A DNA stretch of 64,000 nt, taken from NCBI GenBank assembly GCA_944375905.1, contig CALWAS010000001.1, forward strand, positions 1,540-65,539, in the 5' to 3' direction. Positions 1-21,781 of the stretch are shown one piece after another (position 1 is the stretch's first letter; every line of letters starts with the position of its first letter). The DNA comes from an uncultured Bacilli bacterium. Lineage in GTDB: Bacteria > Bacillota_I > Bacilli_A > RFN20 > CAG-826. The notes under the pieces were generated by a model. That model saw nothing but the letters and a program-made list of their open reading frames with translations, did not search any database and was not told where the DNA came from. Position numbers and translations under genes: made by a program.

Positions 1-2325
1 CGATAGCGTTGCCGCACTAAGACGGCTAAAGCCTGTTAAATTCGCATTTACAGTAAATTCACCTCCGCTAATTTCCGAATATTTAAATAGCGTATATGAC
101 CCACTGTTGGAAGGCGTAACGGTAATCTCCCCGGTGCTATTTCTTGCAAAGTAGTCATTCATAGGCCCCTTAACATACCCAACTGTTGTTCCTGAGACAT
201 CATTTGCTATCGTTATCGAAGAACCCGGAATTACTTGGAAAGTTCCTGGATAACCGTCTTTGGGGAATCCCGCTGAAACAGTTAACCGTGGCAGTACATC
301 GTCGATTTCAAAAGAACCATCGGAGACAAATGACACCTCGATGAGTTGAAGGTTTTCTACGGTATAAGCCCAATCGCCATCACCGCCTATAGAAGATGAA
401 GTAAATGAGCTTTGCGGAAACGAGCTTATATCGAATTTCTTCTTTAGGCCAAAAACCTCGCCAAAAGATAAATCAATGGTCGTTTTTTGCGTCTTGGGCA
501 CGAATGCCCAATTGCTGCTTCGCCAGTTTAATTCATTCACGGAAACTTGTCGGCCAGCGCCTTCCTGAAAGCTTATTTTGGAGTCGGAGGCCGCGGTCTT
601 GACATATCCAGCAAATGCCGAAGACGAATCAACGGATATAGTGCCGTTGTTTATTATTACGGCATCAGACATTGCTGTCCCGTCATGATATTTTGTCGGA
701 TATACATCGGTTAATTTCGTAGAAGAGTCGATGTTTTGATAACCGGCTAAATGGCCACCGTTTGTAACCTGGAGCGACCCTCCTTGCTCTATTTGCAGCT
801 TAGATCCAGGCAAGAAATTTGCATAGCAGCTGGAAATAGAAAACGAGGATGAATTTTTGACTAAAACATCCCATTTGTATGAAAACGGAATGGAAAGGCG
901 ATTATAGGTAAAATCAACCCCCACGCCTAAAATGGCTTTCAGCGCGTCTGGAAAGAATTCTGACGCATCGCCTCCTGCAGTCGAAATGCCAACGGTAAAA
1001 GAAAAATTTCTACTAGCAAAGGTGATGTCTAAATCCATCATCACCGTGATATCCTGCATATTGGCGTTTCCGTCTAGCTCGATGCTTGTAATAGCCGCCC
1101 TTTTTTCATTCGCCCAAAAAAAGCTGCTGCTATCTTCGTCTGGATAATGCGAATTTGGCAGAGACAAATACCGGTTGTCTCCTATAGTTAAACCGCGCTT
1201 AATTAGTTTTTCGCCGTTTTGGGATTCATTGACGCTATCGTTTACCCAATAGTAAGCGGCCGGCTCATAATCGAACGTAATATGGCCACTGTTAAGCTGA
1301 AGAAGGCCGGCCGACCCGCTAGCCCCTATGATATCTAGAGTGCCAAGGGTGTGTGCCCCGCTGAAATAAATGTCATATTGCCCCTTAACTCTAGACCCCG
1401 CATAAACACGCAAAGGTACCGAAATGTTTGGCATGTCGAATGTCTCAATCGGAAACACGGCTCCACCAAATAAGGCGCCGTTCCAGCTGCTGACGGAACT
1501 TGTTCCCACACTCCCAGAAAGGGCGTCTCCACCGCCGATGAAATCGTATGTCACAAAGGGGAGAGTAACCTCTGCTCCAGAAGCGGAAGATGACCCTATC
1601 TGAACTCTAGTTAGCCCGTTATCGGCATCGTCTTCGTTCCATGGCTTGATGTAGCCGTTCACGATAAGGTCCCCATTAACAGTCAAAGCAGTGTCGCCTT
1701 CCATGGAAAGTTCAGCATACAACCCAGCAGTTTGCCCCATCGGATGCCTATTTTCCGTAACAGCGCCAAGTTGACCGCCGACAATCAACTCTGATCCAGA
1801 CGCGACGGAAATAGAGCAGCCCCGCTTAAGCACGACCGAGGCTCTCTTATTAATCTTTACTTGTTCAAGGCTTTCATCCGAAAACCACGGGCTGTTCTTA
1901 TCAACGTCTTCCCTAGTATATTTTTTTGCCTCATCGTCATAAGAGTTTTGATATTCCGCGGTTATTGTCCCGCCCACAATCGAAAGGGAATACGGAATGA
2001 TCAGCTTCTTTCCGTTGTCTATCGTTATGTCCTCGTCGATGACGATTGGATTGGAATCGGGATTATTGGGATTGACCCGCGGAATGACGTAGATGGCCTC
2101 GTTCGCCCTCGCATCGGTCACGGCCGCGGCAATGCTCGTATAGAGAATGGCCTGCCCGTTCCTTGAAATGCAGGCTTCCGCCCGCTTGGAATCCGCGGTA
2201 AAGGCCTTGACCGTGCCGCGCGATAGGAAGTTCCACCCCGAGAGGGCGGATCCGATTCCGGCCATGAGGATGCCGAAAAGAAGAATTCCCGCCAGCGCCT
2301 TCTTGCCCCTTCTATTTAATCTCAT
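1..2325 (-). CDS. hypothetical membrane-anchored Gly/Ser/Thr/Asn-rich (beta-rich) surface protein; partial, 3' end lies beyond base 1
   Basis: Absent from the ORF track because it has no stop inside the window. I translated the minus strand codon by codon from ATG 2325..2323 (MRLNRRGKKALAGILLFGILMAGIGSALSGWNFLSRGTVKAF...) down to base 1 (775 codons) and met no stop. The N-terminus is a basic stretch plus one hydrophobic helix (signal anchor). The start overlaps the stop of the upstream ORF in ATGA. Confidence 0.75.
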   Translation of the reverse strand, partial: MRLNRRGKKALAGILLFGILMAGIGSALSGWNFLSRGTVKAFTADSKRAEACISRNGQAILYTSIAAAVTDARANEAIYVIPRVNPNNPDSNPIVIDEDITIDNGKKLIIPYSLSIVGGTITAEYQNSYDDEAKKYTREDVDKNSPWFSDESLEQVKINKRASVVLKRGCSISVASGSELIVGGQLGAVTENRHPMGQTAGLYAELSMEGDTALTVNGDLIVNGYIKPWNEDDADNGLTRVQIGSSSASGAEVTLPFVTYDFIGGGDALSGSVGTSSVSSWNGALFGGAVFPIETFDMPNISVPLRVYAGSRVKGQYDIYFSGAHTLGTLDIIGASGSAGLLQLNSGHITFDYEPAAYYWVNDSVNESQNGEKLIKRGLTIGDNRYLSLPNSHYPDEDSSSFFWANEKRAAITSIELDGNANMQDITVMMDLDITFASRNFSFTVGISTAGGDASEFFPDALKAILGVGVDFTYNRLSIPFSYKWDVLVKNSSSFSISSCYANFLPGSKLQIEQGGSLQVTNGGHLAGYQNIDSSTKLTDVYPTKYHDGTAMSDAVIINNGTISVDSSSAFAGYVKTAASDSKISFQEGAGRQVSVNELNWRSSNWAFVPKTQKTTIDLSFGEVFGLKKKFDISSFPQSSFTSSSIGGDGDWAYTVENLQLIEVSFVSDGSFEIDDVLPRLTVSAGFPKDGYPGTFQVIPGSSITIANDVSGTTVGYVKGPMNDYFARNSTGEITVTPSNSGSYTLFKYSEISGGEFTVNANLTGFSRLSAATLS

Positions 2326-3016
2326 CGAAAGAGAACCTCGTAGGTGAAGTCGGCTTGGTTAATCGAGCCGGAAAGGTCGGAAAAGGAAGCATAGTTTTGG
2401 TTCGCTTCCGGGGTAATGAGCGGGAAGTCAATCTCGAAATAGGCCGCGGATGCCGTCGGGGCTTCCGCGTCGAAGGAAAAGCCGACGTGATCGGCCGGGC
2501 CGGAGGAATCGAAGGCATAGCTCCCATCCTTTATCGGAAGGTCGCTTTCGTAGGCCGCGTTCACCAGCGATGAGCCGAAATAGCCACCGAACTTCGCTTC
2601 ATAGCTGAGGGTGAAGGAAAAATGGAAGCCATTGGGAAAGGCCGCGTTGAAGGGGTCTTCTTCGCCCACGGGGAAAGAAAAGGCAATCCTCGCCGTAAGG
2701 GTCCCTGTATAGACGATGTGGTAATAGTCCCCCGCCGCATTCTGGGAGGAATTGGCTTCGAGGAAGCCCTCGGTCGAAAACTTGCTGATGTCGAGGCTCA
2801 CGGCCGCGTAGTCGCTCGCGTCAAGGACGTAGCCGACCGAGACGTTGCCGCCCTCGACGCTCGCGCTCTGGTTGATCGACCAGGCGGAGTAGCCGAAGCC
2901 GATGAGGCTAATTACGGCTAATGCTAAAAGCCCCCCCCTGACGAAATCGCCCCATTCGACAAGCGAAGCTTCCTCTTCATAGCGGTGATTTTACAACATT
3001 GCAAAGAATGTTTCAT
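2322..3016 (-). pseudogene. signal-peptide protein gene split by a frameshift in a G8 homopolymer (candidate phase-variable gene, OFF in this sequence)
   Basis: Frame A runs from ATG 3016 (SD-like GAAGG 5 nt upstream) or ATG 2980: ...MKRKLRLSNGAISSGG, then the G-run, then stop at 2924. The next frame continues without a canonical start as LLALAVISLIGFGYSAWSINQSASVEGG... into track ORF 2322..2801. One extra G (G9) or two fewer (G6) fuse both parts into a roughly 220 aa protein with a basic n-region plus a hydrophobic h-region. Confidence 0.6.
2931..2938 (-). repeat. poly(G)8 on the coding strand (C8 on + strand) inside the signal-peptide coding region
   Basis: Read directly: aaaag-cccccccc-tgacg. 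It sits exactly at the frame break between ORF 2924..3229 and ORF 2322..2801. Confidence 0.95.
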
Positions 3017-3371
3017 CTTTGCCTTCTTTGCGTTCAAGGAAGTCCCCTTTTCGGGACTGTAAGAAAGAAGCCGGGAACTAGGAAATGGATTTCGGGTGAA
3101 AGCTCGAACTCGAAAGGCAAATAGAAACGGGCCGCATAAGCGAACTGGGGAAGAACCCAGCGACATAAATGGAAACTCGGAAACGGGTTTCGCTATTCTT
3201 GTCTCCCTCGAAGGAAGATGGATCATCAAACATGACGGCCAGACTTTCCTTTTCTAAACAGCGGCTAAAAAGTAGACCAAGGCTTTATGCAACCTTTCGG
3301 CGTAATCCATCCCCTTCTGCATTAGCCTGGTGGATTGACGTCGGAAGCTGACTTTGTCGAATAACCGCAGT

Positions 3372-3986
3372 CTATTCTTCGTCCGGCTGCTGCCCGTCGT
3401 GCGCAAGCCAGCGGCACTCACCGAAATCGAAGTCGGAGAAGACGGCCTTGAAGGAAGAGTCCTCGGGCGAGCAGGCGTACACGCCGAAGCGGATTTCGCC
3501 GGTCGCCTTAGTTAAGTGGGCAATCCGCATCTGCTCGAAGTTGACTCCATCCTTGGAGCATTCGATCTTGAAGTCGTCTTCGCGCCTCGAAAGGCGGTAC
3601 CACATCTCCTTGACGTCGGCTTTGATATTGGTCGTCGCCCAGTCGCTATAGCCGCCGTTCGTGACGACGGAGCCGAGATGCTGGAATTCCTCGTTTTCGT
3701 ATTCGATCGATCCCTTGATCCAGTTCTCGCTATCGAGATAGACGATCACCCCGCATTGATCGAAACGATGATGGGCATCCCTGAAAGAGGTTTTTACCGT
3801 GAAGGAAAAGAACTTCCGGTCGGTTGCCATCTGAAAGCACGGGGCGTTGTCGTTCCGGAAATGGTAATAGGTCCTCTGCCATAAATCGGTATGGGGGACG
3901 GTCGTTATTTCAAGGGTTCCGTCTGGACTTGCTTTCCAATTTTTAGGCTCGCGGGTCCAGGCGAATTTAACAAAATCTGGTTGCAT
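3372..3986 (-). CDS. DUF1349-family protein (concanavalin A-like lectin/glucanase fold)
   Basis: 204 aa. MQPDFVKFAWTREPKNW...LEITTVPHTDLWQRTYY...QCGVIVYLDSENWIKGSIEYE...MWYRLSRREDDFKIECSKDG matches my memory of the DUF1349 family pattern. No competing ORF. Confidence 0.7.
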   Translation of the reverse strand: MQPDFVKFAWTREPKNWKASPDGTLEITTVPHTDLWQRTYYHFRNDNAPCFQMATDRKFFSFTVKTSFRDAHHRFDQCGVIVYLDSENWIKGSIEYENEEFQHLGSVVTNGGYSDWATTNIKADVKEMWYRLSRREDDFKIECSKDGVNFEQMRIAHLTKATGEIRFGVYACSPEDSSFKAVFSDFDFGECRWLAHDGQQPDEE

Positions 3987-4038
3987 ACTTTTTTATACAC
4001 GAGAATTGTATTCGATTCTAAAAAAGGGCGAATTTTCT

Positions 4039-4074
4039 AAACATCAGTAAATAAGCCAACTAACACCATCAAAC
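4039..4074 (-). repeat. fossil (decayed) CRISPR repeat beyond the terminal repeat
   Basis: ...ctaacaccatcaaac ends 31 nt before repeat 1. Its last 13 nt match the repeat end (aacaccCtcaaac) at 12/13 positions and carry the same C>A change as repeat 3. The remainder has decayed. Confidence 0.45.
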
Positions 4075-4105
4075 TATCAGTATCTAATCCACTCGACTGC
4101 CAATG

Positions 4106-6845
4106 GTTTCTCAGGATGTGGATTTGGCAACACCCTCAAACACTCGCGGATATAGATCTCGCAACGCCGACGTTTCTGAGGATGTGGATTTGGCAACACC
4201 CTCAAACATCCGAAAGCGGGGCGTAGAAAAGCGTGTTGTTTCTGAGGATGTGGATTTGGCAACACCATCAAACGGCAACGCGATCGGCGCCGATCTTTCC
4301 GGTGTTTCTGAGGATGTGGATTTGGCAACACCCTCAAACTCTCCATGATCTCCCCCAGCTTCTTTGCCGGTTTCTGAGGATGTGGATTTGGCAACACCCT
4401 CAAACGGAAGTCCAAGGATAGGCGCGTTTTCCGCCGTTTCTGAGGATGTGGATTTGGCAACACCCTCAAACCCCTATTGCCTTATCTGTTCGCTAAATGT
4501 TGTTTCTGAGGATGTGGATTTGGCAACACCCTCAAACGGATAATCGGACACCTCGAAAATTCCGGAGGTTTCTGAGGATGTGGATTTGGCAACACCCTCA
4601 AACTCAATGTCAGCCATGAACTGACCATACGTTGTTTCTGAGGATGTGGATTTGGCAACACCCTCAAACTGCTTCTGAAAGTAATCCTTATGAAGGTCTG
4701 TTTCTGAGGATGTGGATTTGGCAACACCCTCAAACTCAGCTTGTCGAGGTTGGCGAGAAATGCCTGTTTCTGAGGATGTGGATTTGGCAACACCCTCAAA
4801 CTTATTGGTCATCCCCTCCGCATCCCCTGCGGTTTCTGAGGATGTGGATTTGGCAACACCCTCAAACGATATCCTCGATCTTGTCCATTAGCTTTTTGTT
4901 TCTGAGGATGTGGATTTGGCAACACCCTCAAACTTATTTCCCTAAAGTCCACTACTTACGTATGTTTCTGAGGATGTGGATTTGGCAACACCCTCAAACC
5001 CCCGAAAACGCCGGTCATGGACAACGCTTGTTTCTGAGGATGTGGATTTGGCAACACCCTCAAACAAATGTAGAAAATGGGATTGCAGTATCTCAGTTTC
5101 TGAGGATGTGGATTTGGCAACACCCTCAAACTTATTTCCCTAAAGTCCACTACTTACGTATGTTTCTGAGGATGTGGATTTGGCAACACCCTCAAACGCT
5201 ATCAGGAAGCTTGGGCCGATTACCGGTGTTTCTGAGGATGTGGATTTGGCAACACCCTCAAACCCCTGTCGAAGAGGGTGAGCTCGAAGTCCTGTTTCTG
5301 AGGATGTGGATTTGGCAACACCCTCAAACCCCCTGTGGCGCGCCCTCGGTAGCGACGAAGTTTCTGAGGATGTGGATTTGGCAACACCCTCAAACAAGAG
5401 CCTTGAGAAAGGCAAGGAAGGCTTGTTTCTGAGGATGTGGATTTGGCAACACCCTCAAACAGTGTCTTGAGATACTTCCGGGCGATACTGGTTTCTGAGG
5501 ATGTGGATTTGGCAACACCCTCAAACTTATCTCCCTAAGTACTCCACTACTTACGTGTTTCTGAGGATGTGGATTTGGCAACACCCTCAAACCCACACGT
5601 AGAACGCTCCCCCGGGCTTCAGTTTCTGAGGATGTGGATTTGGCAACACCCTCAAACTTGCAGGGCAGCCAGAGGTAACCAACCTCTGTTTCTGAGGATG
5701 TGGATTTGGCAACACCCTCAAACACCTGACCGGCAACGTCTACTCCCTCTACAGTTTCTGAGGATGTGGATTTGGCAACACCCTCAAACCTTGATGGTCA
5801 TTTTCCTTTTCCTTTTCCTGTTTCTGAGGATGTGGATTTGGCAACACCCTCAAACGAGGAATCGCCCGAAGAGTAATAGCTGAGGGTTTCTGAGGATGTG
5901 GATTTGGCAACACCCTCAAACGCGGTCGTTCCGAAACCTGCCGTTGCCCATGTTTCTGAGGATGTGGATTTGGCAACACCCTCAAACCTGGTACGAGGGC
6001 GGAATAAGCCCGCTTTCGTTTCTGAGGATGTGGATTTGGCAACACCCTCAAACTGTTGAGCGACGCTTGCTGCTGGTTGATCTGTTTCTGAGGATGTGGA
6101 TTTGGCAACACCCTCAAACCGGACGATCGTCGTATATAGTTCCTTGAAGGTTTCTGAGGATGTGGATTTGGCAACACCCTCAAACGTCGTTGCGGCTCAT
6201 TTCAGCTTGATCCTTGTTTCTGAGGATGTGGATTTGGCAACACCCTCAAACCGAATCCGAAATGACCTCGCGGGTACTTATGTTTCTGAGGATGTGGATT
6301 TGGCAACACCCTCAAACCTTGATCGTCATTTTCCTTTTCCTTTCCGGGTTTCTGAGGATGTGGATTTGGCAACACCCTCAAACTAGCGCTTTTTCCAATT
6401 CGTCGAATTTGCTGTTTCTGAGGATGTGGATTTGGCAACACCCTCAAACAACTGTTGGCCAGAAAACCGCGTTTTTCGTGTTTCTGAGGATGTGGATTTG
6501 GCAACACCCTCAAACTATTTCGATTGGCGGGTGGCAGGGAACGTCGTTTCTGAGGATGTGGATTTGGCAACACCCTCAAACCGATATCAAGGATCTCATC
6601 GCGGGAACGCGGTTTCTGAGGATGTGGATTTGGCAACACCCTCAAACATTCCACGAAGCCCTTTCCTAGGTTGAACAGTTTCTGAGGATGTGGATTTGGC
6701 AACACCCTCAAACTCCATAGGGATATGGAGAAAGGAAAACTCTGTTTCTGAGGATGTGGATTTGGCAACACCCTCAAACTGTAGACGCGCGGTATCCGGT
6801 TGCCCGGGAGTTTCTGAGGATGTGGATTTGGCAACACCCTCAAAC
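4106..6845 (-). CRISPR. type II-A CRISPR array: 42 x 36 bp repeats, 41 spacers (39 x 30 nt, 2 x 29 nt)
   Basis: The + strand repeat is GTTTCTGAGGATGTGGATTTGGCAACACCCTCAAAC with a 66 bp period, and I verified every repeat start. Variant repeats lie only at the low-coordinate end (repeat 1 at 4106 has G>C; repeat 3 has C>A at 4267), so the leader is at the 6845 end next to csn2. The array is therefore transcribed on the minus strand, giving crRNA repeat GTTTGAGGGTGTTGCCAAATCCACATCCTCAGAAAC. Confidence 0.97.
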
Positions 6846-6905
6846 CTCTAATTAAAGGTTCTATCGGTGTTTCAAATCCTTAGAAACTCTAACATTAATA
6901 TTCGT
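6846..6905 (-). promoter_or_regulatory. CRISPR leader (60 bp, AT-rich) between the csn2 stop and the newest repeat
   Basis: Assigned by position. On the minus strand it reads ...ATTAATGTTAGAGTTTCTAAGGATTTGAAACACCGATAGAACCTTTAATTAGAG followed by GTTTGAGGG. No convincing -35/-10 pair was identified. Confidence 0.55.
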
Positions 6906-7577
6906 TCAAATCTCGCAAAGATCACGATCAATTTCAATTATGTGTTCGCAAGCGGCAAGACAATCTGGCCTAAAAGCTTCTAAAAGAACAATCGAAATGT
7001 CTTTTCTTTCCATTTCGCGATGGAACGTTCCCAGTTCATCAAGTTCCAAGAAGCCATGTACCCCAAAAATAATCGCTAGTTTTTTCTGGAACAGATGGCC
7101 AACCGCGGACACGGATGATATGAGTCCTTCAAGAAAAGACGAATCATTCCCGGCAGGTTTTAACCCGACAGTCTTTAATAGCGAAGATAGAGCAAATTCC
7201 TCATCCATTTCGAGTGAAACCGAAGCATAGGCGGAAAGGCTCCTGACGTAGTCGACGATGTTTCTTCGAAGACTTTCGAATTCGACCTTTCCGCTTTCGT
7301 CGAGCAAAGATGTTATTTCCTTCACCAATGAGGCTTGCTCTTTCTTTTCATCGCGAGGCCAAAAAAGGGGATCGCTGATAAGGAAGGCGTCTTTTTTCAA
7401 TGAGGCTTGATTTCCGTCGCGAAGATAGAAAAAGTCGCCTTCGTCGTGCTCAATCTGATCTTTCAACTCAGTAATGAACTTTCTTAAAAAGCAAGGATTC
7501 TTGATAATCAGGGTCGTGAATTCGCCATTTCCGGCAATCAATTTCTGTTCAATAAGCCGATGCCTTAGTTCAATCAT
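6906..7577 (-). CDS. csn2: Csn2 (type II-A signature protein)
   Basis: 223 aa, the last gene before the leader. The C-terminal part KKLAIIFGVHGFLELDELGTFHREMERKDISIVLLEAFRP parallels S. pyogenes Csn2 [40 protein letters not shown]. It overlaps cas2 by 4 bp. Confidence 0.85.
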   Translation of the reverse strand: MIELRHRLIEQKLIAGNGEFTTLIIKNPCFLRKFITELKDQIEHDEGDFFYLRDGNQASLKKDAFLISDPLFWPRDEKKEQASLVKEITSLLDESGKVEFESLRRNIVDYVRSLSAYASVSLEMDEEFALSSLLKTVGLKPAGNDSSFLEGLISSVSAVGHLFQKKLAIIFGVHGFLELDELGTFHREMERKDISIVLLEAFRPDCLAACEHIIEIDRDLCEI

Positions 7578-7903
7578 AGGTCCACCACCCGATCAAAATT
7601 CGTTAAGACGTCGGTCTCGTAGTCTCCTAGCAAATAGCTTATGGAATTGAACTGGTTTTCCGTCAATGTCAGGAGCGATACCACTCCGTTTTTAGGCAAA
7701 TTGCCCTTTATCGTTTTTTCGGTCGCCTTGGCCGACGCCTCGTTGACCGATAGCTTGCAGTAAATCGACTTTTGAAAGAGGACAAAACCCTGCTTTTTAA
7801 GAAATTTGACGAATTTGGCGTATTCTCGGCGATCCCTCGCCGTTTCGACTGGCAAGTCGAACATAAGAAGAGATCGCATGAACCTAAATACCGACTCCCC
7901 CAT
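7574..7903 (-). CDS. cas2: Cas2
   Basis: 109 aa. The N-terminus FRFMRSLLMFDLPVETARDRREYAKFVKFLKKQGFVLFQKSIY is the typical type II Cas2 pattern. It overlaps the cas1 end by 20 bp. Confidence 0.9.
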   Translation of the reverse strand: MGESVFRFMRSLLMFDLPVETARDRREYAKFVKFLKKQGFVLFQKSIYCKLSVNEASAKATEKTIKGNLPKNGVVSLLTLTENQFNSISYLLGDYETDVLTNFDRVVDL

Positions 7904-8774
7904 CTTCGAATCCTATTTCAAGCAGAGAATCAACTTTCCCGCCGTTTAATGCCGAGAAAACGGAAAGGCACCAAGGACCAACGGCATTCTGGATTAGCAT
8001 CGTTCTTCCACCGCAACGGCATTCCCTGGTAAAAGACAGAAGCATATCTTTCTTAAAATCATCGGGGTTCAATTTATTTGACAATATGAAGTCATCGACA
8101 AACGGCCTAAAAGGCTCGACGAGATCGCATCCAAGATTGAATTCATTCGTCGGACCACAGTGATGAATGCCGAGCAAATTGCAATATCCGTACGAAGAAA
8201 CCTCGCGGTTCACCATCCCCAGAAGCACTGAATATCCATAGTTTAGGTATGCATTGCGCGAATCTAGCTCATCGCGACGGTCAAAGCCTTCTCCGAAAAT
8301 GGTATTGAAATATACCCTGGCTGCCTGTCCTTCTCTGTTGTTGGAATCGCCGGAAACCGTCTCTTCGCGGTATTTTTTAAGGATTGCGATGCGCTCTGGC
8401 GGAAATCCATGCCGTCTCATGCATGAGATCTGGTTTGATATTTTGGCCATTACGATTTCTTTCCAAACGCCTTCAATTACTCCTTTCTCCCAAGACAGCT
8501 GGCGATATAGCTTCGCCGGCGCATCAAAGCATCCGGCGTATGGGCTTATCTCTCCTTGAGGATTGTGCTTTTGATCGCAGAAAATGACCCTTACCTTATG
8601 GGCGAGGAGTTCGCTTATGAGGGAACCGGTGATGCATGCCTGCGGATTTTCAATTATCAAAACGGCTATTTCATCTAGAAGGACCCTCGTGTCTTTCTCG
8701 GCGCGGCAAACAAGATAGTTAAGCTGGGTCTCGAGTTTGCAACGCGAGGATACCTTCAGGATTCGATAGGCCAT
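7884..8774 (-). CDS. cas1: Cas1 integrase
   Basis: 296 aa with type II Cas1-like layout (MAYRILKVSSRCKLETQLNYLV...VIFCDQKHNP...NAYLNYGYSVL...GIHHCG). It starts 3 bp after the cas9 stop. Confidence 0.9.
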   Translation of the reverse strand: MAYRILKVSSRCKLETQLNYLVCRAEKDTRVLLDEIAVLIIENPQACITGSLISELLAHKVRVIFCDQKHNPQGEISPYAGCFDAPAKLYRQLSWEKGVIEGVWKEIVMAKISNQISCMRRHGFPPERIAILKKYREETVSGDSNNREGQAARVYFNTIFGEGFDRRDELDSRNAYLNYGYSVLLGMVNREVSSYGYCNLLGIHHCGPTNEFNLGCDLVEPFRPFVDDFILSNKLNPDDFKKDMLLSFTRECRCGGRTMLIQNAVGPWCLSVFSALNGGKVDSLLEIGFEDGGVGI

Positions 8775-8777
8775 TCT

Positions 8778-11700
8778 TTAATCCTCTGGAACTTCAAAAA
8801 GGAGATTTTCGTAATAGCCCGTGTAGGAAGTACGTATCAATTTGGTACCTGGCTTCAGAACTTTGCTAATTCGTATCGTGCCAACTGCGGCGGAGAACTC
8901 ATTTCCAAATGATTTTTGCAGATTCACTCTCACAAACTTGCAAGAAAGCAGGCTAACAATGTCATGTAAGGCTAAGCACTGATCAATTGTAGCTAGTGTC
9001 TCAAAAGCAGGTTGGCATATGCGAAGCTTGGAAAGATGGCTTCCCAATTCAGGCAGTTTCGCATAGCAATCGCGCCTTAGCACGTCGTTAAGCAGATAAT
9101 TTAAGAAAGCAAGATTCCCTTTTCTTGATACGCGAGACTCCCCTTCTGAGATTTCTTCTATATGAGTCTCGTCCTCGGAGTAAATAGAAAGGTCTTTCTT
9201 TTTGCCAGCCGGCTCATTGGATCCGATGATTTTACAAATCGATTTGAAATATTCCCTATTTTCTGCATTCATCTCAAGCTCGGATCCATTAATCGCAATT
9301 ATCATGTTCCCGCTTCTTCCGCTTATTGCCAAGCGGACCCGTCTTTTGCTATTTTCAACGGCCATGGAGATAATCGTTCTAATTGGAACTTTTTCTATTA
9401 AAACCTCAGGATCGACAAGCCCGTTGAACGATAAATATTTTTCTATTTCTGGCCTGAGGCTTTCAGTTTGCATTGACGATAAGACAATTTCTGGAATCCC
9501 TTCCAGAGAATAGACATGCTTCTTTCCCTTTCTTGACCTCACTAGCGAATAGAAAGGGGTCGTCATATCGCTATAGCTGCCGTATTTCTTCATCCATTCA
9601 ACCGGTTCGACGCCGTCTGGCACTTTTTTAAGTGGGAAATTGGTTTCCTTGGAATCTTTTCCCTTTACGTAGCCGATTTTATTGAAGAATCCGCTCTTGC
9701 CGCTGAGGTAATTGGGACGGAACGTCACCATGGGGTCGTTCCAGCTCAGGGTCTTCCTGACGAGTTTGATCGTCGAGTTTTCCTTTTCGACCTCCACCGT
9801 CTTATCGTCCTTTTTCACATAATCGCAGGCAACCCAGATAACTTTTCTTAGGTCCCTGGATTTTTGGTCGCGGCGGAAAATCCACTTCGGCCCGGCTTTG
9901 AAGCTCGGATGCCCCTTTGCCTTTTGCTCCTCGACCCATTTTTTGTTGATTCGGCGGCCAAAGCGTTGGTTGTAAACGTCGCCGACGACGATATTGAGGT
10001 AGGCATCGTTGGCATGGTGGAAGTCGTTTAGGTCCCTCACCTTCGGAAGATGGAACATTCCTCGGAAATCGGTAACGAGGCCGGCTTTCGAATAGATGAC
10101 TTCCGTTTCCGGGTAACGCAGCTTGAAAATGTCGCAGACGGCCTTCACCGCCTGGTTCGTATAGACAAGCTGACGGTTCACGAAACCAACGATTTCGTCG
10201 TCCCGCAGTTCTTCTTTCCTAAGAAGGCGCTCGCGCTTTTCCCCGGGCATGAGCTTTCTATTCCCGACCTTGATTTGGGAGAGAATGTCAATCCACTTCT
10301 TCCCTTCCGGGCTTATGAAGCCTGGGGGCAATGGATACTCCTTGTCCTTGAGGTTGTTCTTTGAACGCTTGGTCAAAACAGTGTTCAGGAAGGAGTCGTC
10401 CTTGACGTAGGCTTGGGGGATTATGTGATCGATGTCGTAGTCGGACGATAGACGCTCGAGCTTGATTTCCTCGCCAGTGTAGACATCGTGCCCAAGCTGC
10501 ATGAAATAGAGATATAAGCGCTTTGAGCGAAGCTGGTCTTCGCTTTTGTCGTCAAGTTCCTTTTTGAGGGCCGCGGCTTCCGACTTGAGTAATCCAACGG
10601 CCGCCGAAAGATACTTTTCGATCGACTTCTTGCGCGATTCGGTCGTTTTCGGATCCTTGGCCTTCGAACGGGTGCATTCGACGAATACCTTGTCGAACTT
10701 CTTGATGCCAAGGATCTTCTTTAGCTCGTCGACGATATGGAACGTCTGGAAAAGCGATCTTTTCATTCCGGGCGAGACATAGGCTTCGTCGATCAATTCC
10801 CTCAAAGGATCGCTTTCTCCGCCTTCTTTGAAACGCGAAGAGTTTATGGCCTCGACCTGGGAAGAGAATGAATACTTGTCCCCTTCGTAAATTTCCATGA
10901 AGTTGTCATTCGTCCGGTAGAGGAGGTCCATGATGGAGGAAGGGATAATCTCCCCGGTTTCGCGATTCACGACGTTCTCCTTTATTCCCCTGAGCAGGAG
11001 GTCCGAGACCGGGGCATAGTCCTTGAAGGGAAGGGAACTGGCTTTTTGGGCCTGTTCGGGAGAGAGTAAAGAAGAAAGTTCTTCCATTCTCGTGGCTTTG
11101 TCTTCAAAGGCGGTCACGATGGCGATTATCTTTTCGCCTAGTTCAAAAGCCTCGCGGTTTCGGTAGAAGCCTTCCCCAAGCACCGATTCGAGGGCAATCC
11201 ACGAGGAAAGCGACCCATTAAGCATGTTTTCGAGTTTTTCTTCGTCGTCGGTGTTCCTCGTCGACAAGACGACGGCTTTATCGGCATAAAGCAAGGAAAG
11301 CGACTTTTTGAGATCGCTCGGCTTCACTTTCTTCTTCTTTAGATATACGTCCTTGAGGAGGTGGCGCTTTTCCTCGAAGCTCAAAGGACGGTGGTTGAGG
11401 GAGATGTTGTTAAGCTCGTTGAGGACCTTGAAGGCTTGGAAAACCATCGACGACTTCGGAAGCGTCTCTTCGCCTTTGATGTAGGTGCAGGTATTCCTGA
11501 GATTGTCCATGAATCCCTTGGCCGTTGCCGAGCGGTTGACGACATCGAAGAAATTCCAAGGAGTTATCTTGGTATTCGGATCATTTTTGACGACCCAGTG
11601 GTTCTTGTTTTCCCTCCCTTCTTCCGGGTTGGAAATCGGCCCCACGTAATAGGGAATACGATATCGTAGGAGCGAAAGGATCTTGTAGTCCTCCTTCTTC

Positions 11701-13121
11701 GGGTTGGGGAAACCCTTGTCTTTTTCAAGCAGGAACGGGTAGTACTTCCCCTGCTTTTGGAGAATGATGGCCAATTCCGACTCGTTTAGCTGATAAGGAA
11801 AGACGCCGTTGTGCTTGCTATTTTGCCTCTCGAAGAGCTTGCCAGCCCCGATTCGTCCCCGGAGGTAGGCGACGGTGGGCACAAGCTCCTCTATTTCCGC
11901 TGCCTTGTCGCAAAGGGCGTTTACTGCCTTCATGAAATCATCGGGAGAGCATTTTTTCTCGCAAGTCTTCCCGTCCTTATGGCCGCTCGATCCCGTGAAC
12001 GTAAGGAAGGTAACCCCAGTCGTTCCGTTCCAAAAGTCGTTATAGATGTTCTTTCCGTCCTTCTTCATCATCCCGCGGTCGCGAAGCGCTTTCGTAAGCC
12101 TCCGCAGGGCCTTAAGGTCCTGACCGTATGCTTCGTAGACGGAAAGCATGGCGTCCGTTATCGAGTTCTTTCCCTTGAGCAAATTCACTAGGAGAAGCGA
12201 ATCGGCCAGTTCCTTGGCTTTCGACAAAAGCGATGTTTCCTCGTCGCTTAGCCCATATTGGAGAATCGCGTCATCGAAGTCTTCCATCTCGAAGGAAATG
12301 CCCGTCTTTGCCTTCTCCGGGTCATCGTCTTTTAGGCGAGGGAAGAAATCGGAAAGCTTGCGTTTTCCTCCGGAAATGAAAGAGACGATGGCAGCCTTGG
12401 TCCCCCTTCCCTTTCCTCCTAGAAGGATGCCGGAAACCGATTCCGTCCGGTCGCTTATCCTTTGGTCGCCTTTGAAAAGATCGATCAATTTCTCGGCGGC
12501 TCCCGGTTTTTCCCTCATCGAGAAGCTCTCGACCTCGGATTCTCCGTCCTCGTCCTCGACGGCCAAAGAGGACAGGATCTCGTCTATTTCATCGAATGCT
12601 TCCTCGATTTCCTCTTTTGCGACCCCGCCGGTCGAAATGCTTCCCTCGCGCAGGAAATTGCCGCGGTATTTAATCATGTGGGCTATCGCGAGATAGACGA
12701 GTCTGATGTCAAATTTCCGGTCTTCGCTCATCAAGGCTTTCCGGAGATGGTAAATGGTCTTGTATGACTTATAAAAGGAAAGGTCGTCGGTATAGAAGTG
12801 CTTGGCCCGAAGTTCCGGCATTTTGTCTTCGGGATGGAATTTCGAGGCATCGAGGCGCTTGAAGAAAAGAGGATCGACCTTGTCCATCTCCTCGCGGAAA
12901 AGATCCCTCAAAAGAAGGATGCGGGCCCTCCTTCTTTGATAACGCCTTCTCGCAGCCCGGGCTGCACGCCTGGTGCTTGCGTCCTGTGCCTCGTCGAAAA
13001 GACGGCTGCCCCAAAGGTGCTTTCCGCCCTTCCTGATGAGGTGGTACTCCGGATCGGTAACGGCAAAGCCTACCGAGTCGGTTCCGATGTCGAGTCCCAG
13101 ATAATATTTCCTGTCTTCCAT
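8778..13121 (-). CDS. cas9: Cas9 (type II-A), 1447 aa
   Basis: RuvC-I motif MEDRKYYLGLDIGTDSVGFAV sits at the ATG 13121, with SD AAGGGAAG upstream. HNH motif DYDIDHIIPQAYVKDDSFLNTVLTKRSKNN is present. The track start at 13238 adds 39 non-conserved residues and runs across the tracrRNA gene, so I trimmed it. Confidence 0.95.
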   Translation of the reverse strand: MEDRKYYLGLDIGTDSVGFAVTDPEYHLIRKGGKHLWGSRLFDEAQDASTRRAARAARRRYQRRRARILLLRDLFREEMDKVDPLFFKRLDASKFHPEDKMPELRAKHFYTDDLSFYKSYKTIYHLRKALMSEDRKFDIRLVYLAIAHMIKYRGNFLREGSISTGGVAKEEIEEAFDEIDEILSSLAVEDEDGESEVESFSMREKPGAAEKLIDLFKGDQRISDRTESVSGILLGGKGRGTKAAIVSFISGGKRKLSDFFPRLKDDDPEKAKTGISFEMEDFDDAILQYGLSDEETSLLSKAKELADSLLLVNLLKGKNSITDAMLSVYEAYGQDLKALRRLTKALRDRGMMKKDGKNIYNDFWNGTTGVTFLTFTGSSGHKDGKTCEKKCSPDDFMKAVNALCDKAAEIEELVPTVAYLRGRIGAGKLFERQNSKHNGVFPYQLNESELAIILQKQGKYYPFLLEKDKGFPNPKKEDYKILSLLRYRIPYYVGPISNPEEGRENKNHWVVKNDPNTKITPWNFFDVVNRSATAKGFMDNLRNTCTYIKGEETLPKSSMVFQAFKVLNELNNISLNHRPLSFEEKRHLLKDVYLKKKKVKPSDLKKSLSLLYADKAVVLSTRNTDDEEKLENMLNGSLSSWIALESVLGEGFYRNREAFELGEKIIAIVTAFEDKATRMEELSSLLSPEQAQKASSLPFKDYAPVSDLLLRGIKENVVNRETGEIIPSSIMDLLYRTNDNFMEIYEGDKYSFSSQVEAINSSRFKEGGESDPLRELIDEAYVSPGMKRSLFQTFHIVDELKKILGIKKFDKVFVECTRSKAKDPKTTESRKKSIEKYLSAAVGLLKSEAAALKKELDDKSEDQLRSKRLYLYFMQLGHDVYTGEEIKLERLSSDYDIDHIIPQAYVKDDSFLNTVLTKRSKNNLKDKEYPLPPGFISPEGKKWIDILSQIKVGNRKLMPGEKRERLLRKEELRDDEIVGFVNRQLVYTNQAVKAVCDIFKLRYPETEVIYSKAGLVTDFRGMFHLPKVRDLNDFHHANDAYLNIVVGDVYNQRFGRRINKKWVEEQKAKGHPSFKAGPKWIFRRDQKSRDLRKVIWVACDYVKKDDKTVEVEKENSTIKLVRKTLSWNDPMVTFRPNYLSGKSGFFNKIGYVKGKDSKETNFPLKKVPDGVEPVEWMKKYGSYSDMTTPFYSLVRSRKGKKHVYSLEGIPEIVLSSMQTESLRPEIEKYLSFNGLVDPEVLIEKVPIRTIISMAVENSKRRVRLAISGRSGNMIIAINGSELEMNAENREYFKSICKIIGSNEPAGKKKDLSIYSEDETHIEEISEGESRVSRKGNLAFLNYLLNDVLRRDCYAKLPELGSHLSKLRICQPAFETLATIDQCLALHDIVSLLSCKFVRVNLQKSFGNEFSAAVGTIRISKVLKPGTKLIRTSYTGYYENLLFEVPED

Positions 13122-13150
13122 ACTTCCCTTTCTTTGGCTAGAATAGCCTC

Positions 13151-13236
13151 GGATTTGGCAATCCTGTTCAAATAAGCAAGAATGCCAACACATTGGCCTG
13201 CGTTTGCGGGCAATGACGGCCGATAGGCCGTTTTTC
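13151..13236 (+). ncRNA. tracrRNA: tracrRNA (anti-repeat + nexus-like region + intrinsic terminator)
   Basis: GGATTTGGCAA-TCCTGT-TCAAAT (13151..13173) matches the + strand repeat GGATTTGGCAA-CACCC-TCAAAC. It pairs with the crRNA repeat 5' part in an 11 bp block and a 6 bp block around an internal bulge. It is followed by AAGCAAGAATGCC..., hairpin GCCAA-CACA-TTGGC (13184..13197), and terminator GGCC-GATA-GGCC + TTTTT (13218..13235). A possible -10 TAGAAT lies at 13139..13144. The exact 5' end is not known. Confidence 0.85.
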
Positions 13237-13349
13237 ATTGTTAAAATGATTGTACCCGATGATTTGTTAAGACGACACTTAAAAAGTTCAAACAGCCATT
13301 TTATTTAAGCCTAATGCAGAATGGATTCCATATTCGCCAAGTAAAAAAT

Positions 13350-16300
13350 TTAGTTCAAAAAAGCCTCGAAGAACGATCTTATGCTGGATTCGTCATTTTC
13401 CCTTCCGCCACGACGGACGTATTTGTAGCCCTTATCGTCGGAATATTCCTCAAGAAAGCCAAAATTAACCATCGTTCTAAGAACAAAGAGAACTTCCTTT
13501 TCCGAATGTGCTTCGCCTAGCCATCCAAAGCCACGGGCTTTGCTAAGTCCAAAGCGCACCATCCTCTTTGTCTCGTCCCCCCTCATGAATTCCGATATCG
13601 CATAAGTTGATGGCGTAAGGCGATATTGAGAGCAAACCCCAATAGACTGCAGAACTCCGTTGACGATTGTTTTGATGGGCAGCCCAAGAAGACAACATGA
13701 GGAAAGGGGGATTTCGTTGCTTTCATAAGTTTCCCGGTCCCTTGATATTTTCTCCAGGGTGTCGAGCCATGGTTTCCTAACAATGAAATTGCAGCCAGAC
13801 CCGTCGGCCTTGTAATTGGAACATCCAAGTATCCGCCGACCGCTATCGTGGCCTGATTTGTCTTTCACCTTCTTAACGATTAGGTAGCCGCTCAGACACA
13901 CCGGGCATTTCGATATCTGCAGGTTAAACTGGTTGCCGCTTATGTCGTTCGTCACGAAGCCGCACACTTCCGGATCGTTGGAGCAGACGTAGATTTTGCG
14001 CAAGAACTTCTCCATTCCCTTCCGGGGCCTCATTTCCTGAAGGGGGTAGCCGCATTTAGGGCAGGCATAGCGCAGCTTTAGCTCGCTTTTAGGCTCGAAA
14101 GCCGGCCCGTTGATAACGACATGGGTATGCTTCTCGCGAAGCTCGAGGATAAATGACGATGGGTGATATTTCGGGGCAACGAGGTAAACCCGGTTCTTCG
14201 TCCTCGTAAGGGCAACGTAGAAAAGTCGCCTTTCCTCTCCGTATTCGATCTCCGGCTGTTCCTTTATGACGAGCTTCATTATCGGGTCGTCTTCGATCTT
14301 GCTTGGAAAGCCAAGCACGTCGTCCTTCCCGTTTATCACGATCACGTTGTCGTAGCCAAGACCTTTGGAAGAATGAGCCGTCAGAAAATCGATTTTCAGT
14401 TGGGGGAAGCGCTTCGATACGATCGTCTTTCTCGCTTCGTCGTATCCGTATAAATCGGAGAACCGGGAAAGGTTATAGGCATCGAAGCTGTAACGGCCGA
14501 TCAATAGTATCGTTCCCTTGTCTCCGTAGCGAACATGGATGTCGTCAATGGCCATGTCCACCGCTTCGGCAAGTTTCCGGTAGGGGGAAGATCCGCCTTT
14601 GGCTTCGCCGTCGTCGTAGGAATATACGATGACCGGATCGTTTAGATGCTTGCTGGAGACAAGGCTTTTCTTCTTCTGAAGCGCATTTTCCATGACGAAG
14701 CCGCCGGCGATGTCGATGAGTTCCTGGGAGTTTCGATGGGTCGATGTGAGATAAAGCGTATCGCAATAGCCCATTGTCTTCTCGAAATCGACGAAAAGGC
14801 CGATGTCGCTTCCCGAAAAGCGGTAAATCGATTGCCAGTCGTCCCCCACTGCCACGATCTTGGCTTTGGAAACCTTCGACAGTTTTTCGGCAAGATTGAA
14901 ACGCTGGGCCGAAATATCCTGGTATTCGTCGATGAAGACATAGTCATAGGGAAGCGTCTTTCCTTCCTCCGCGAGACGGTCAAGATAGTCGGAGGCATCG
15001 TTGATCATGTCCTCGAAATCGATGGCTTTGTCGTTTTCGAGGGCGGCTTGATAAGCCAGGTAGCACTGATGGGCAATATCCAGGAAAAGAAGCGTCCGCT
15101 CGTCATTCCGGGCACGAGCCGCGGCCTTGAAATCCATGAATTTGTCAACCGTATAGGCATCGACCTTGAAACGGTTTATGAAATTGGCGACGAGTTGGAT
15201 GAGCCGGAGGAAATAGCGGTCGTCGGCCAGCTTCGATAACTCATAATAGACCTCGATATCCCTTTTAGGCTTGCCACTTATGCCCGCCTTTGCAAGTTCG
15301 TCCTTCAAATGCTCTATCAGGTCCCTACCGTCGTTATAGCGGGAAAAAGTCGTAATCAGGCAAGTCTTGTGAAGGGCGTGGAAACGGGCCTTGTCGACCA
15401 TGTGGGCCTTATATTCGTGCAGCTCATCCTCATCGTAACGGCTAGACGTCCCGTCCTCGGCGATCCCGTAGTGTTCGAGATAGACCGTTCTTTCGCCATC
15501 TCGAATCGTGAAGTCCGGGCAATATGGCTTGTTGCTGCCCGGGAAGAAGAACGGATACGGCTCCTCGTATGAGTAATCGATTCCGCTCACGTAAAGGAAA
15601 TTGGCTATTCTGCACTCGTCGCGCGACCTTACGCGTTCGTTCTGGATCGTCACGCGCTTCCGCTCGAGATCTTGTTTAAACGAATCGAGGGCACATTCGA
15701 GATTCCCTTTCATCGTTACTTCGGCTCCGCGAGAAAGGGCTAGCTTATAGCCATCGGCCGCAAGCCCGGGGTCGAAAGGAACTTCGAGGTACGACGCAAA
15801 GAAAAGCGCAATCTTCTTTTTTAACGAATCGTCTTTGAGATCCTCCTTCAGGTAGCGTCGAAGGACATCGACCATGTAGGATCGCTCGACGATTTTCCTT
15901 TTCTCCGACGTGCCTTCCGCCAAAAGGCTATTGCCCAGCGAGTGGAAAGTAAGGATCTTCGCGTCTATCGCCATCTTTTTGAAGCGCGCCTTCAACTCGG
16001 ATGTTGCCTTCCGCGTAAAGGAAATCACGAGTATCCGTTTGGGGTCGATTCCCTTCTTATCGAGCAAATAGCGGCATTTGGCTTCGATCAATGTCGTTTT
16101 TCCCGCTCCGGCTCCGGCGACGACGAGCGTGTAATCCTCGTCTCTCAACACCGCCTTTCGCTGCCCTTCATCTAAAGATATGCGCGGATCGTCCGGCTTC
16201 ATGACCTCATCAAGGTAATCTTTGTCTATTGATAAGTGACGGTTAACGAAAGCCTCGTTGTGACGATTCACGAGTTCCTTCGCGCTTTCAAAACAGCGCT

Positions 16301-16538
16301 GATAGCGAATCAACTCTTTCAAATTGAAGTGGCTTTTGCGGGCAAAATCCCCCAAAACGCCGTTTTCCTCCATGGTCTTCAGCTCATCATGGGTCCTTCG
16401 GCATTTATCGATGATCGGATCGTACTCGCGGCGAGAAACGAAACGGTCGAGATGAAGAAGGTATTCAATCTTCTCATAGCAGTCTTTCATCTCAATGAAT
16501 TTTGGGTTGTCGTTCTTGAAAAAGGAAAATATTGCCAT
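13350..16538 (-). CDS. helicase IV / UvrD-type SF1 helicase with nuclease-like insertion, two topoisomerase-type Zn-ribbons and a C-terminal winged-helix-like domain
   Basis: 1062 aa. Walker A is VVAGAGAGKTT. Other motifs: FIDEYQDIS, VGDDWQSIYRFSGS, TAHSSKGLGYDNV, LFYVALTRTK. The insertion ECRIANFLYVSGIDYSYEEPY...YCPDFTIRDGERTVYLEHYG resembles the helicase IV insert. Zn-ribbons are CPKCGYPL...CSNDPEVCGF and CPVCLSGY...GCSNYKADGSGCNF. Confidence 0.8.
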   Translation of the reverse strand: MAIFSFFKNDNPKFIEMKDCYEKIEYLLHLDRFVSRREYDPIIDKCRRTHDELKTMEENGVLGDFARKSHFNLKELIRYQRCFESAKELVNRHNEAFVNRHLSIDKDYLDEVMKPDDPRISLDEGQRKAVLRDEDYTLVVAGAGAGKTTLIEAKCRYLLDKKGIDPKRILVISFTRKATSELKARFKKMAIDAKILTFHSLGNSLLAEGTSEKRKIVERSYMVDVLRRYLKEDLKDDSLKKKIALFFASYLEVPFDPGLAADGYKLALSRGAEVTMKGNLECALDSFKQDLERKRVTIQNERVRSRDECRIANFLYVSGIDYSYEEPYPFFFPGSNKPYCPDFTIRDGERTVYLEHYGIAEDGTSSRYDEDELHEYKAHMVDKARFHALHKTCLITTFSRYNDGRDLIEHLKDELAKAGISGKPKRDIEVYYELSKLADDRYFLRLIQLVANFINRFKVDAYTVDKFMDFKAAARARNDERTLLFLDIAHQCYLAYQAALENDKAIDFEDMINDASDYLDRLAEEGKTLPYDYVFIDEYQDISAQRFNLAEKLSKVSKAKIVAVGDDWQSIYRFSGSDIGLFVDFEKTMGYCDTLYLTSTHRNSQELIDIAGGFVMENALQKKKSLVSSKHLNDPVIVYSYDDGEAKGGSSPYRKLAEAVDMAIDDIHVRYGDKGTILLIGRYSFDAYNLSRFSDLYGYDEARKTIVSKRFPQLKIDFLTAHSSKGLGYDNVIVINGKDDVLGFPSKIEDDPIMKLVIKEQPEIEYGEERRLFYVALTRTKNRVYLVAPKYHPSSFILELREKHTHVVINGPAFEPKSELKLRYACPKCGYPLQEMRPRKGMEKFLRKIYVCSNDPEVCGFVTNDISGNQFNLQISKCPVCLSGYLIVKKVKDKSGHDSGRRILGCSNYKADGSGCNFIVRKPWLDTLEKISRDRETYESNEIPLSSCCLLGLPIKTIVNGVLQSIGVCSQYRLTPSTYAISEFMRGDETKRMVRFGLSKARGFGWLGEAHSEKEVLFVLRTMVNFGFLEEYSDDKGYKYVRRGGRENDESSIRSFFEAFLN

Positions 16539-16811
16539 GCTGACTCGCTATATTGTATTTCGATAAGCCAAACAATTGGAGTTTGCTATCACAAACATGC
16601 AATTTGCTTTTTAGATAAAGGCTTCTTTGCAATGGTTTCTCAAAGAAAACGACAAAGAATTCCCGAATAGAATCTTTAAGATTTGCGTTCTGTAACCCAA
16701 TGGTACCAATCGGCTTGTGTACGAGAACATCACATGGAGACACGCATCGCGCAGTCAACACTCACGATTCGACTTAAAGACAAAAAATATCAAATTCTTG
16801 CCACTTTGGCC

Positions 16812-18674: not shown

Positions 18675-18855
18675 CTGCGTTTCTCTGCCTTCGAGCAATT
18701 ATACGTAAAGAAAACGGCCATGGGTCTTTCAGATGGCTGATGACCGTTGAAGAAAATACCGATGTTACGAAATGAGACTGATTCCCTGCTAACCGTCAAA
18801 ACGCGAACATTGCGCCTGGACAAATTGATTTTCGAAGAAGAAATGATTTTCCGAA

Positions 18856-21756: not shown

Positions 21757-21781
21757 TCTTAAATCCACCTTAACTTTCTTA

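Follow-up and report, generated by a model that had tools for sequence, protein, structure and literature searches.

The locus described here raises the question of whether a run of eight G residues that splits a gene for a putative secreted protein is a genetic switch, a recent loss of function, or an artifact of assembly. The window, that is, the whole 64-kb stretch of DNA that was analyzed, carries at its left end a small gene followed by a large one, both on the minus strand, and the small gene is interrupted within its predicted signal-peptide region. The first-pass annotation had read this interruption as a candidate phase-variation switch, with a homopolymer error or a plain pseudogene as the alternatives. 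The features concerned are:

2931–2938, minus strand: poly-G tract, read as C8 (CCCCCCCC) on the plus strand and as G8 on the coding strand
2924–3016, minus strand: 5′ fragment of the split gene, with ATG at 3016, opening with MKHSLQCCKITAMKRKLRLSNGAISSGGGF and ending at a premature TAG at 2926–2924
2322–2930, minus strand: 3′ fragment of the split gene in the +1 frame, with the core LLALAVISLIGFGYSAW, a predicted beta-sandwich body, and the stop TGA at 2324–2322
2322–2325, minus strand: ATGA stop/start overlap between the small and the large gene, TGA 2324–2322 over ATG 2325–2323
1–2325, minus strand: large downstream gene (P0006), with 775 of its 868 codons inside the window, running off the left end

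The frames and coordinates bear out the anatomy first proposed for the split gene, with one correction. In the signal peptide, the tract separates the basic start from the hydrophobic core, and the TAG at 2926–2924 stands two codons past it; the first start codon of the +1 frame is indeed a GTG (2801), 43 codons past the first Leu and without a Shine-Dalgarno sequence, and the ATGA overlap with the large gene is present as described. The following frame had been given as 219 codons long; the frame is real, but it remains open over 222 codons when measured from a TAA at 2993 and over 202 when measured from the first Leu; it is the repaired protein that has 219 residues, with MKRK as its start. 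As had been predicted, one added G (G9) yields a single intact signal-peptide protein, an ORF of 231 aa from MKHS or 219 aa from MKRK, with an architecture identical to that of P0001 and P0002, whereas G8 leads to a stop after 30 codons. The ATG at 3016 is preceded by an RBS-like GAAGG 8 nt upstream, and the second ATG of the 5′ fragment, at 2980 (MKRKLR), offers an alternative start that agrees with the family; the true start is likely this second ATG, as in all family members, and MKHS is the less sure of the two. Thus, the locus combines a mononucleotide G/C tract of ≥7 nt inside an ORF with a frame that is toggled between intact and truncated by a change in repeat number, both of which are marks of phase-variable loci. 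A scan for sigma-70 promoters and terminators gave nothing convincing upstream of the small gene, the lone promoter-like match lying inside the start of the ORF.

The locus was present in chicken-gut and bird-gut metagenome runs and in no RNA run, and tract lengths were read from assembled contigs, in which minority variants drop out. In sample X1, an independent Logan assembly at 29x word depth gave C8 on a 5.6-kb contig that passes through the tract unbroken and matches the window exactly. Two other samples from the same chicken-gut study, X3 and X4, carried C9 and were otherwise identical over positions 2300–3400. Comparison of the clone over positions 1–60000 (∼57 kb of assembled window sequence) showed that the tract indel and at most one SNP (41037) set X3 apart from the window; in X4, the differences were the tract indel, isolated SNPs at 19177 and 58484, and one cluster of seven SNPs, amounting to ∼3 substitution sites. 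The cluster, at 53567–53597 in the ThrRS gene, comes from a short contig of 3x depth and was probably cross-mapped from the ThrRS of another organism. Short contigs of both samples also join 53785 to 54002, skipping 216 nt of the same gene, with a shorter side of 27–28 nt; this junction, too, is probably due to cross-mapping of another organism's ThrRS and not a variant of the strain. No other homopolymer indel (A7, T7, C6, or G6) was found among X1, X3, and X4 over the ∼57 kb; thus, the tract was the first site to change in this clone. Both lengths are thus genuine, G8 in one population and G9 in its clonal siblings, giving the length polymorphism among near-identical populations (C8 in X1 versus C9 in X3 and X4) that is expected of a phase-variable locus. 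Taking the out-of-frame state as OFF and the in-frame state as ON, one solid and one weak OFF sample stand against at least nine ON samples. A further sample, X2, was also C8 and was left out of the counts, because its label is “synthetic metagenome” and its sequence may go back to the same assembly.

Five further loci, L001, L002/L003, and L006/L007, were recovered by protein and contig look-ups, and the comparison with related genomes that the first-pass annotation had proposed gave G9 or an in-frame G10 in every one. L002/L003 and L006/L007 have G9, and L001 has G10 through a synonymous TCA>TCG change (Ser) just before the tract, which leaves the length the same and the frame intact. Among the metagenome samples, X5–X7, which carry the L002 allele, have the extra C (i.e., G9), and X13 has the L001-type substitution together with the extra C (i.e., G10). 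One contig from X10 shows C11 beside the L001-type substitution, one base more than the in-frame G10, and is out of frame, a weak observation at 3.5x depth near the contig end. In X8, X9, X14, and X17, the contigs break off within or at the edge of the tract and say nothing about its state; a reading of these breaks as within-sample heterogeneity was rejected, since at 2.6–5x depth they are uninterpretable. The in-frame length is therefore the common state among diverged strains, all three of the other alleles having an uninterrupted in-frame tract. These alleles differ from that of the window by a dS of 0.065–0.15, and a dN/dS of 0.13–0.30 among the four alleles indicates purifying selection. 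Apart from the tract, the window copy is free of stops and frameshifts, and the five other loci are all intact (5/5). A decaying pseudogene is ruled out by this dN/dS, the absence of other lesions, and the intact orthologs. The exact-flank pattern GCTAAAAGCCCCCC N{0,8} GACGAAATCG had no match in GTDB species representatives or JGI metagenome contigs; the locus is thus absent from, or different in, these two sets.

As for chance, no G/C run of ≥7 nt other than the tract occurs in the 64-kb window (54.6% GC) or in any of the 10–20-kb relative loci (L001–L003, L006, and L007). Dinucleotide shuffles predicted 5.7 ± 3.6 C8/G8 matches per window versus one observed, the window being depleted in such runs. 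GGG accounts for 30% of Gly codons, giving P ∼0.03 for GGG-GGG-GGG given Gly-Gly-Gly, and at every other Gly-Gly-Gly site of the window the run is interrupted (4/4). Conservation of the tract among the alleles is not significant at their divergence (P ∼0.5, an estimate, for no change at three synonymous sites). As bare sequence, the existence of the tract does not exceed chance; what makes it significant is where it lies and that its length varies from sample to sample.

Several explanations for the interrupted frame were weighed against these observations. Homopolymers are classic sites of indel errors, and the tract is evidently hard to assemble, with low-depth Logan contigs of four samples ending there, but the proposition that the real genome is G9 and that G8 is a sequencing or assembly error is very improbable; against the uniform G9 in high-quality reads that the first-pass annotation had considered, G8 was reproduced independently on the through-going 29x contig of X1, and the lack of any other homopolymer difference among X1, X3, and X4 excludes a homopolymer-error-prone platform. 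A very small chance is left to programmed recoding, by which transcriptional slippage or ribosomal frameshifting on G8 would yield some full-length protein and G8 would be a low-expression allele. Long homopolymers can cause RNA-polymerase slippage, but slippage is poor at G/C runs of 8 in comparison with A/T runs of ≥9, and since every other strain carries the protein in one uninterrupted frame, no conserved requirement for frameshifting exists.

A one-off loss of function, in which a G9>G8 deletion was fixed in one bird by drift or selection and the gene is an incipient pseudogene that does not switch back and forth in any biologically meaningful way, is unlikely, yet it accounts for several of the observations: a single well-supported OFF population (X1 and the window) stands against many ON ones, no within-sample heterogeneity is visible in the contigs, the tract does not exceed the expectation from shuffles, and, as a homopolymer is the likeliest place for an indel, one swept deletion would look the same. 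Against it, the near-identity of the clone to its G9 siblings over ∼57 kb places the event very recently and at one hypermutable site, a length out of frame in the opposite direction (G11, weak) occurs in another lineage (X10), the gene is under purifying selection and free of secondary lesions, and the tract has been kept, even lengthened, and never interrupted in four alleles. The fixed G8 with decayed orthologs that was to indicate a plain pseudogene is not what was found, given the G9 siblings and the intact, selected orthologs. The reading we favor is that the poly-G tract is probably a slipped-strand ON/OFF switch, a contingency locus, caught in the OFF state in this clone. What stands of the original phase-variation claim is that the length differs between clonal samples, that the in-frame state is common, and that the gene is selected; reversible switching within a population, its defining property, is presumed.

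Under such a slipped-strand switch, a hypermutable poly-G run would reside within the signal-peptide coding region of a selected gene, and the gain or loss of one G moves it between an intact frame (G9, or G10 with TCG) and a truncated one (G8, or G11 in one weak sample). By analogy with known contingency loci, the length would change by slipped-strand mispairing at replication, reversibly and at high frequency. The G8 window represents a natural population whose consensus is OFF. In the OFF state, translation would end after 30 codons (18 from the second ATG), ahead of the hydrophobic core, so that no exported protein would be made, and the first possible restart would be the GTG 125 nt further on, which has neither an RBS nor a signal peptide. 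The OFF state would probably also lower translation of the coupled large gene, because of the ATGA overlap and because the large gene's own RBS candidate is a poorly spaced GAGG 12 nt upstream of its start.

The repaired small protein is ∼220 aa long (219/231 aa), with a basic, hydrophobic, and small-residue N-terminus, and it had no Pfam, NCBIfam, PADLOC, or PHROG match. Searched as a single query, it returned only its own 95–96% relatives among 5.8 billion and 1.84 billion proteins, the latter being representatives that were searched with full HMMER and yielded only its own cluster. A profile built from syntenic small proteins, those of the distant relatives being 20–29% identical to the window protein, retrieved ∼20 clusters of 200–214-aa proteins. 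The family N-terminus consists of M-R-R-L-R, a hydrophobic stretch, and G-[FIV]-[AG]-[FY]-S-[SA]-W, with an invariant Trp46, and the basic, hydrophobic, and small-residue signal is kept in 20 family members. This N-terminus is predicted to be a Sec-type signal or signal-anchor and, judging from it alone, the protein would be secreted or membrane-anchored, with function and surface exposure likewise read from the N-terminus. An insert specific to the lineage, SNGAISSGGG, separates the n-region from the h-region in the chicken-gut species, and the Gly3 of this insert is encoded by the tract; in the high-GC relatives L009 and L011, the equivalent Gly-Gly is encoded by the interrupted codons GGA GGG or GGC GGG, and low-GC family members have no insert of this type. 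AlphaFold models of the small protein (a TM helix and a beta-sandwich, pLDDT 58) and of the large one (all-beta, pLDDT 65) are of low confidence, and no fold assignment was drawn from them. With Foldseek, neither model found a significant or high-TM counterpart in the PDB, the best matches being Ag43 and Gram-positive pilins (E > 0.01) and a luteovirus readthrough domain (TM 0.24). The small protein belongs to a small, unnamed family of ∼200-aa signal-peptide proteins in uncultured Bacilli, each of which has a large, secreted all-beta protein as its partner.

The large partner, P0006, is 868 aa long with an N-terminal signal or TM segment, and neither it nor the 327-aa product of a third gene had a Pfam, NCBIfam, PADLOC, or PHROG match. 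Compared with other strains, residues 1 to ∼120 of P0006 are 92–97% identical and the remainder only 15–60%; the adjoining small gene is 95–96% identical across strains, and the flanking genes are ∼95–97% identical. This pattern marks the large protein as a putatively surface-type protein that is hypervariable and mosaic. At least three alleles of the large gene occur within one species (P0006, P0004/5, and P0007). In X3 and X4, one contig leaves the window sequence at 1591 and continues into unrelated sequence beginning TCTTGATGGTGAACTCCCTGTC, which suggests a second allele or a recombination breakpoint of the large gene co-existing in these samples. Distant homologs of the large protein were found in MAGs titled “uncultured Bacilli/Firmicutes bacterium,” and in each case the large gene is preceded by a gene for a 200–244-aa protein with a 4- or 8-nt stop/start overlap. 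Titles as general as these do not bear out the allusion to wall-less Bacillota in the first-pass annotation. The loci of these distant relatives (GC ∼59%) have one 8–9-nt G/C run each, in unannotated sequence ∼4–5 kb downstream of the gene pair (13517–13525 in L008, 14373–14381 in L009, and 13641–13648 in L010).

The gene pair adjoins a type II-A CRISPR-Cas system in both the window and L002. In the window, the CRISPR array at 4106–6845 is built of a 36-nt repeat, GTTTCTGAGGATGTGGATTTGGCAACACCCTCAAAC, which occurs ∼42 times at a period of 66 with spacers of 30 nt, and the Logan contigs of all runs break in it. The type II-A operon follows on the minus strand at 6906–13238, in the order csn2 (6906–7577), cas2, cas1, and cas9 (8778–13238, 1486 aa). 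Beside the cas operon, at 13350–18698 on the minus strand, are two helicase genes with best matches to defense-system models, the first encoding a UvrD-like protein of 1062 aa (GajB and DRT-associated helicase models) and the second a Schlafen-group-3-type protein of 628 aa (AbiO/Nhi/PDC-S41 models); together, the two helicase genes and the CRISPR-Cas system make this a defense-island-like region. Further along the minus strand, at 18856–21768, a 970-aa protein with BspA-type leucine-rich repeats (PF13306) is, from its repeats, a probable further surface protein. In other strains, restriction-type genes replace the CRISPR-Cas block upstream of the DUF1349 gene; in L001, LlaJI/Eco57I-type restriction genes lie beside the gene pair (LlaJI, Eco57I-like, and ResIII at 1–8742). 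Downstream of the gene pair, at ∼3 kb, L001, L006, and L007 carry a JetABC (Wadjet) operon. With the CRISPR-Cas block swapped for restriction genes and JetABC downstream, the locus is thus situated at a strain-variable junction.

A more far-reaching reading would make the tract the master ON/OFF gate of an undescribed two- or three-gene surface module that combines allelic replacement with stochastic silencing, and we put it forward tentatively, as a possibility on the doubtful side. The module may comprise an all-beta protein of ∼850 aa whose translation is coupled to that of a small beta-sandwich protein with a signal peptide, and the large protein may exist as several alleles of <50% identity within one species, in a defense-island-like flexible region. 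If this were true, a phage-receptor or antigen-like surface structure would be silenced, and a Campylobacter-style strategy would have arisen independently in a commensal known only from metagenomes.

The best-supported conclusion is that the locus is a poly-G contingency locus, of a known kind, in an unnamed gene family of uncultured chicken-gut Bacilli. Slipped-strand phase variation is a textbook phenomenon in pathogens, but few cases are on record from uncultured gut commensals; in this case, public metagenomes were sufficient to reveal a clone whose representatives in different birds are set apart by little more than one G in a signal-peptide tract, providing a concrete and testable example of putative in-host ON/OFF variation in an uncultured Bacilli lineage. 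Phage or host selection is likely to act on the unnamed conserved pair of a small and a hypervariable large secreted protein. Annotators should enter the split ORFs as a single phase-variable gene, in place of two hypothetical proteins or a pseudogene.

Among known systems, the TapA-SipW-TasA and camelysin operons of Bacillota offer a superficial likeness, in that a small beta-sandwich secreted protein is encoded with a partner and the N-terminal signals of the gene pair described here are similar, both ending in the conserved small-aromatic motif G-[FIV]-[AG]-[FY]-S-[SA]-W. Membership in the SipW-cognate or TasA/camelysin families was rejected, there being no NCBIfam or Pfam match (E ≤ 1/0.01), including to SipW-cognate or TasA models; a TapA-SipW-TasA operon was also rejected, as no signal-peptidase gene was called in L001–L007 and Foldseek gave no significant match. 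Repeat-mediated frameshift switches in signal-peptide regions are familiar from the CTCTT repeats of Neisseria opa and the poly-A tract of Mycoplasma hominis vaa. As in opa and vaa, the repeat lies in or near the leader-peptide region of a surface protein (here a putative one), where extra residues are tolerated and translation would be switched ON and OFF; unlike in these, it is a mononucleotide G run encoding Gly3 at the junction of the n- and h-regions, in an unrelated protein family.

The closest comparison is with the poly-G/C contingency loci of Campylobacter jejuni, such as cj1139 (G8) and cj0031 (G9) (Bayliss et al., 2012, PMC3401435), in which G8 and G9 tracts switch at high rates, the modal length is 9, and ON/OFF states shift during passage in chickens (PMC3401435). 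The likeness extends to an intragenic tract of G8–G11, an ON/OFF frameshift upon gain or loss of a single G, a modal in-frame length of 9, the chicken-gut habitat, changes of state between birds, and genes that concern, here putatively, the cell surface. Unlike C. jejuni, a low-GC epsilonproteobacterium, the host is an uncultured MAG lineage of the class Bacilli with 55% GC, and only one such tract was seen in 64 kb and one in each 10–20-kb relative locus, which gives no sign of a multi-locus phasome.
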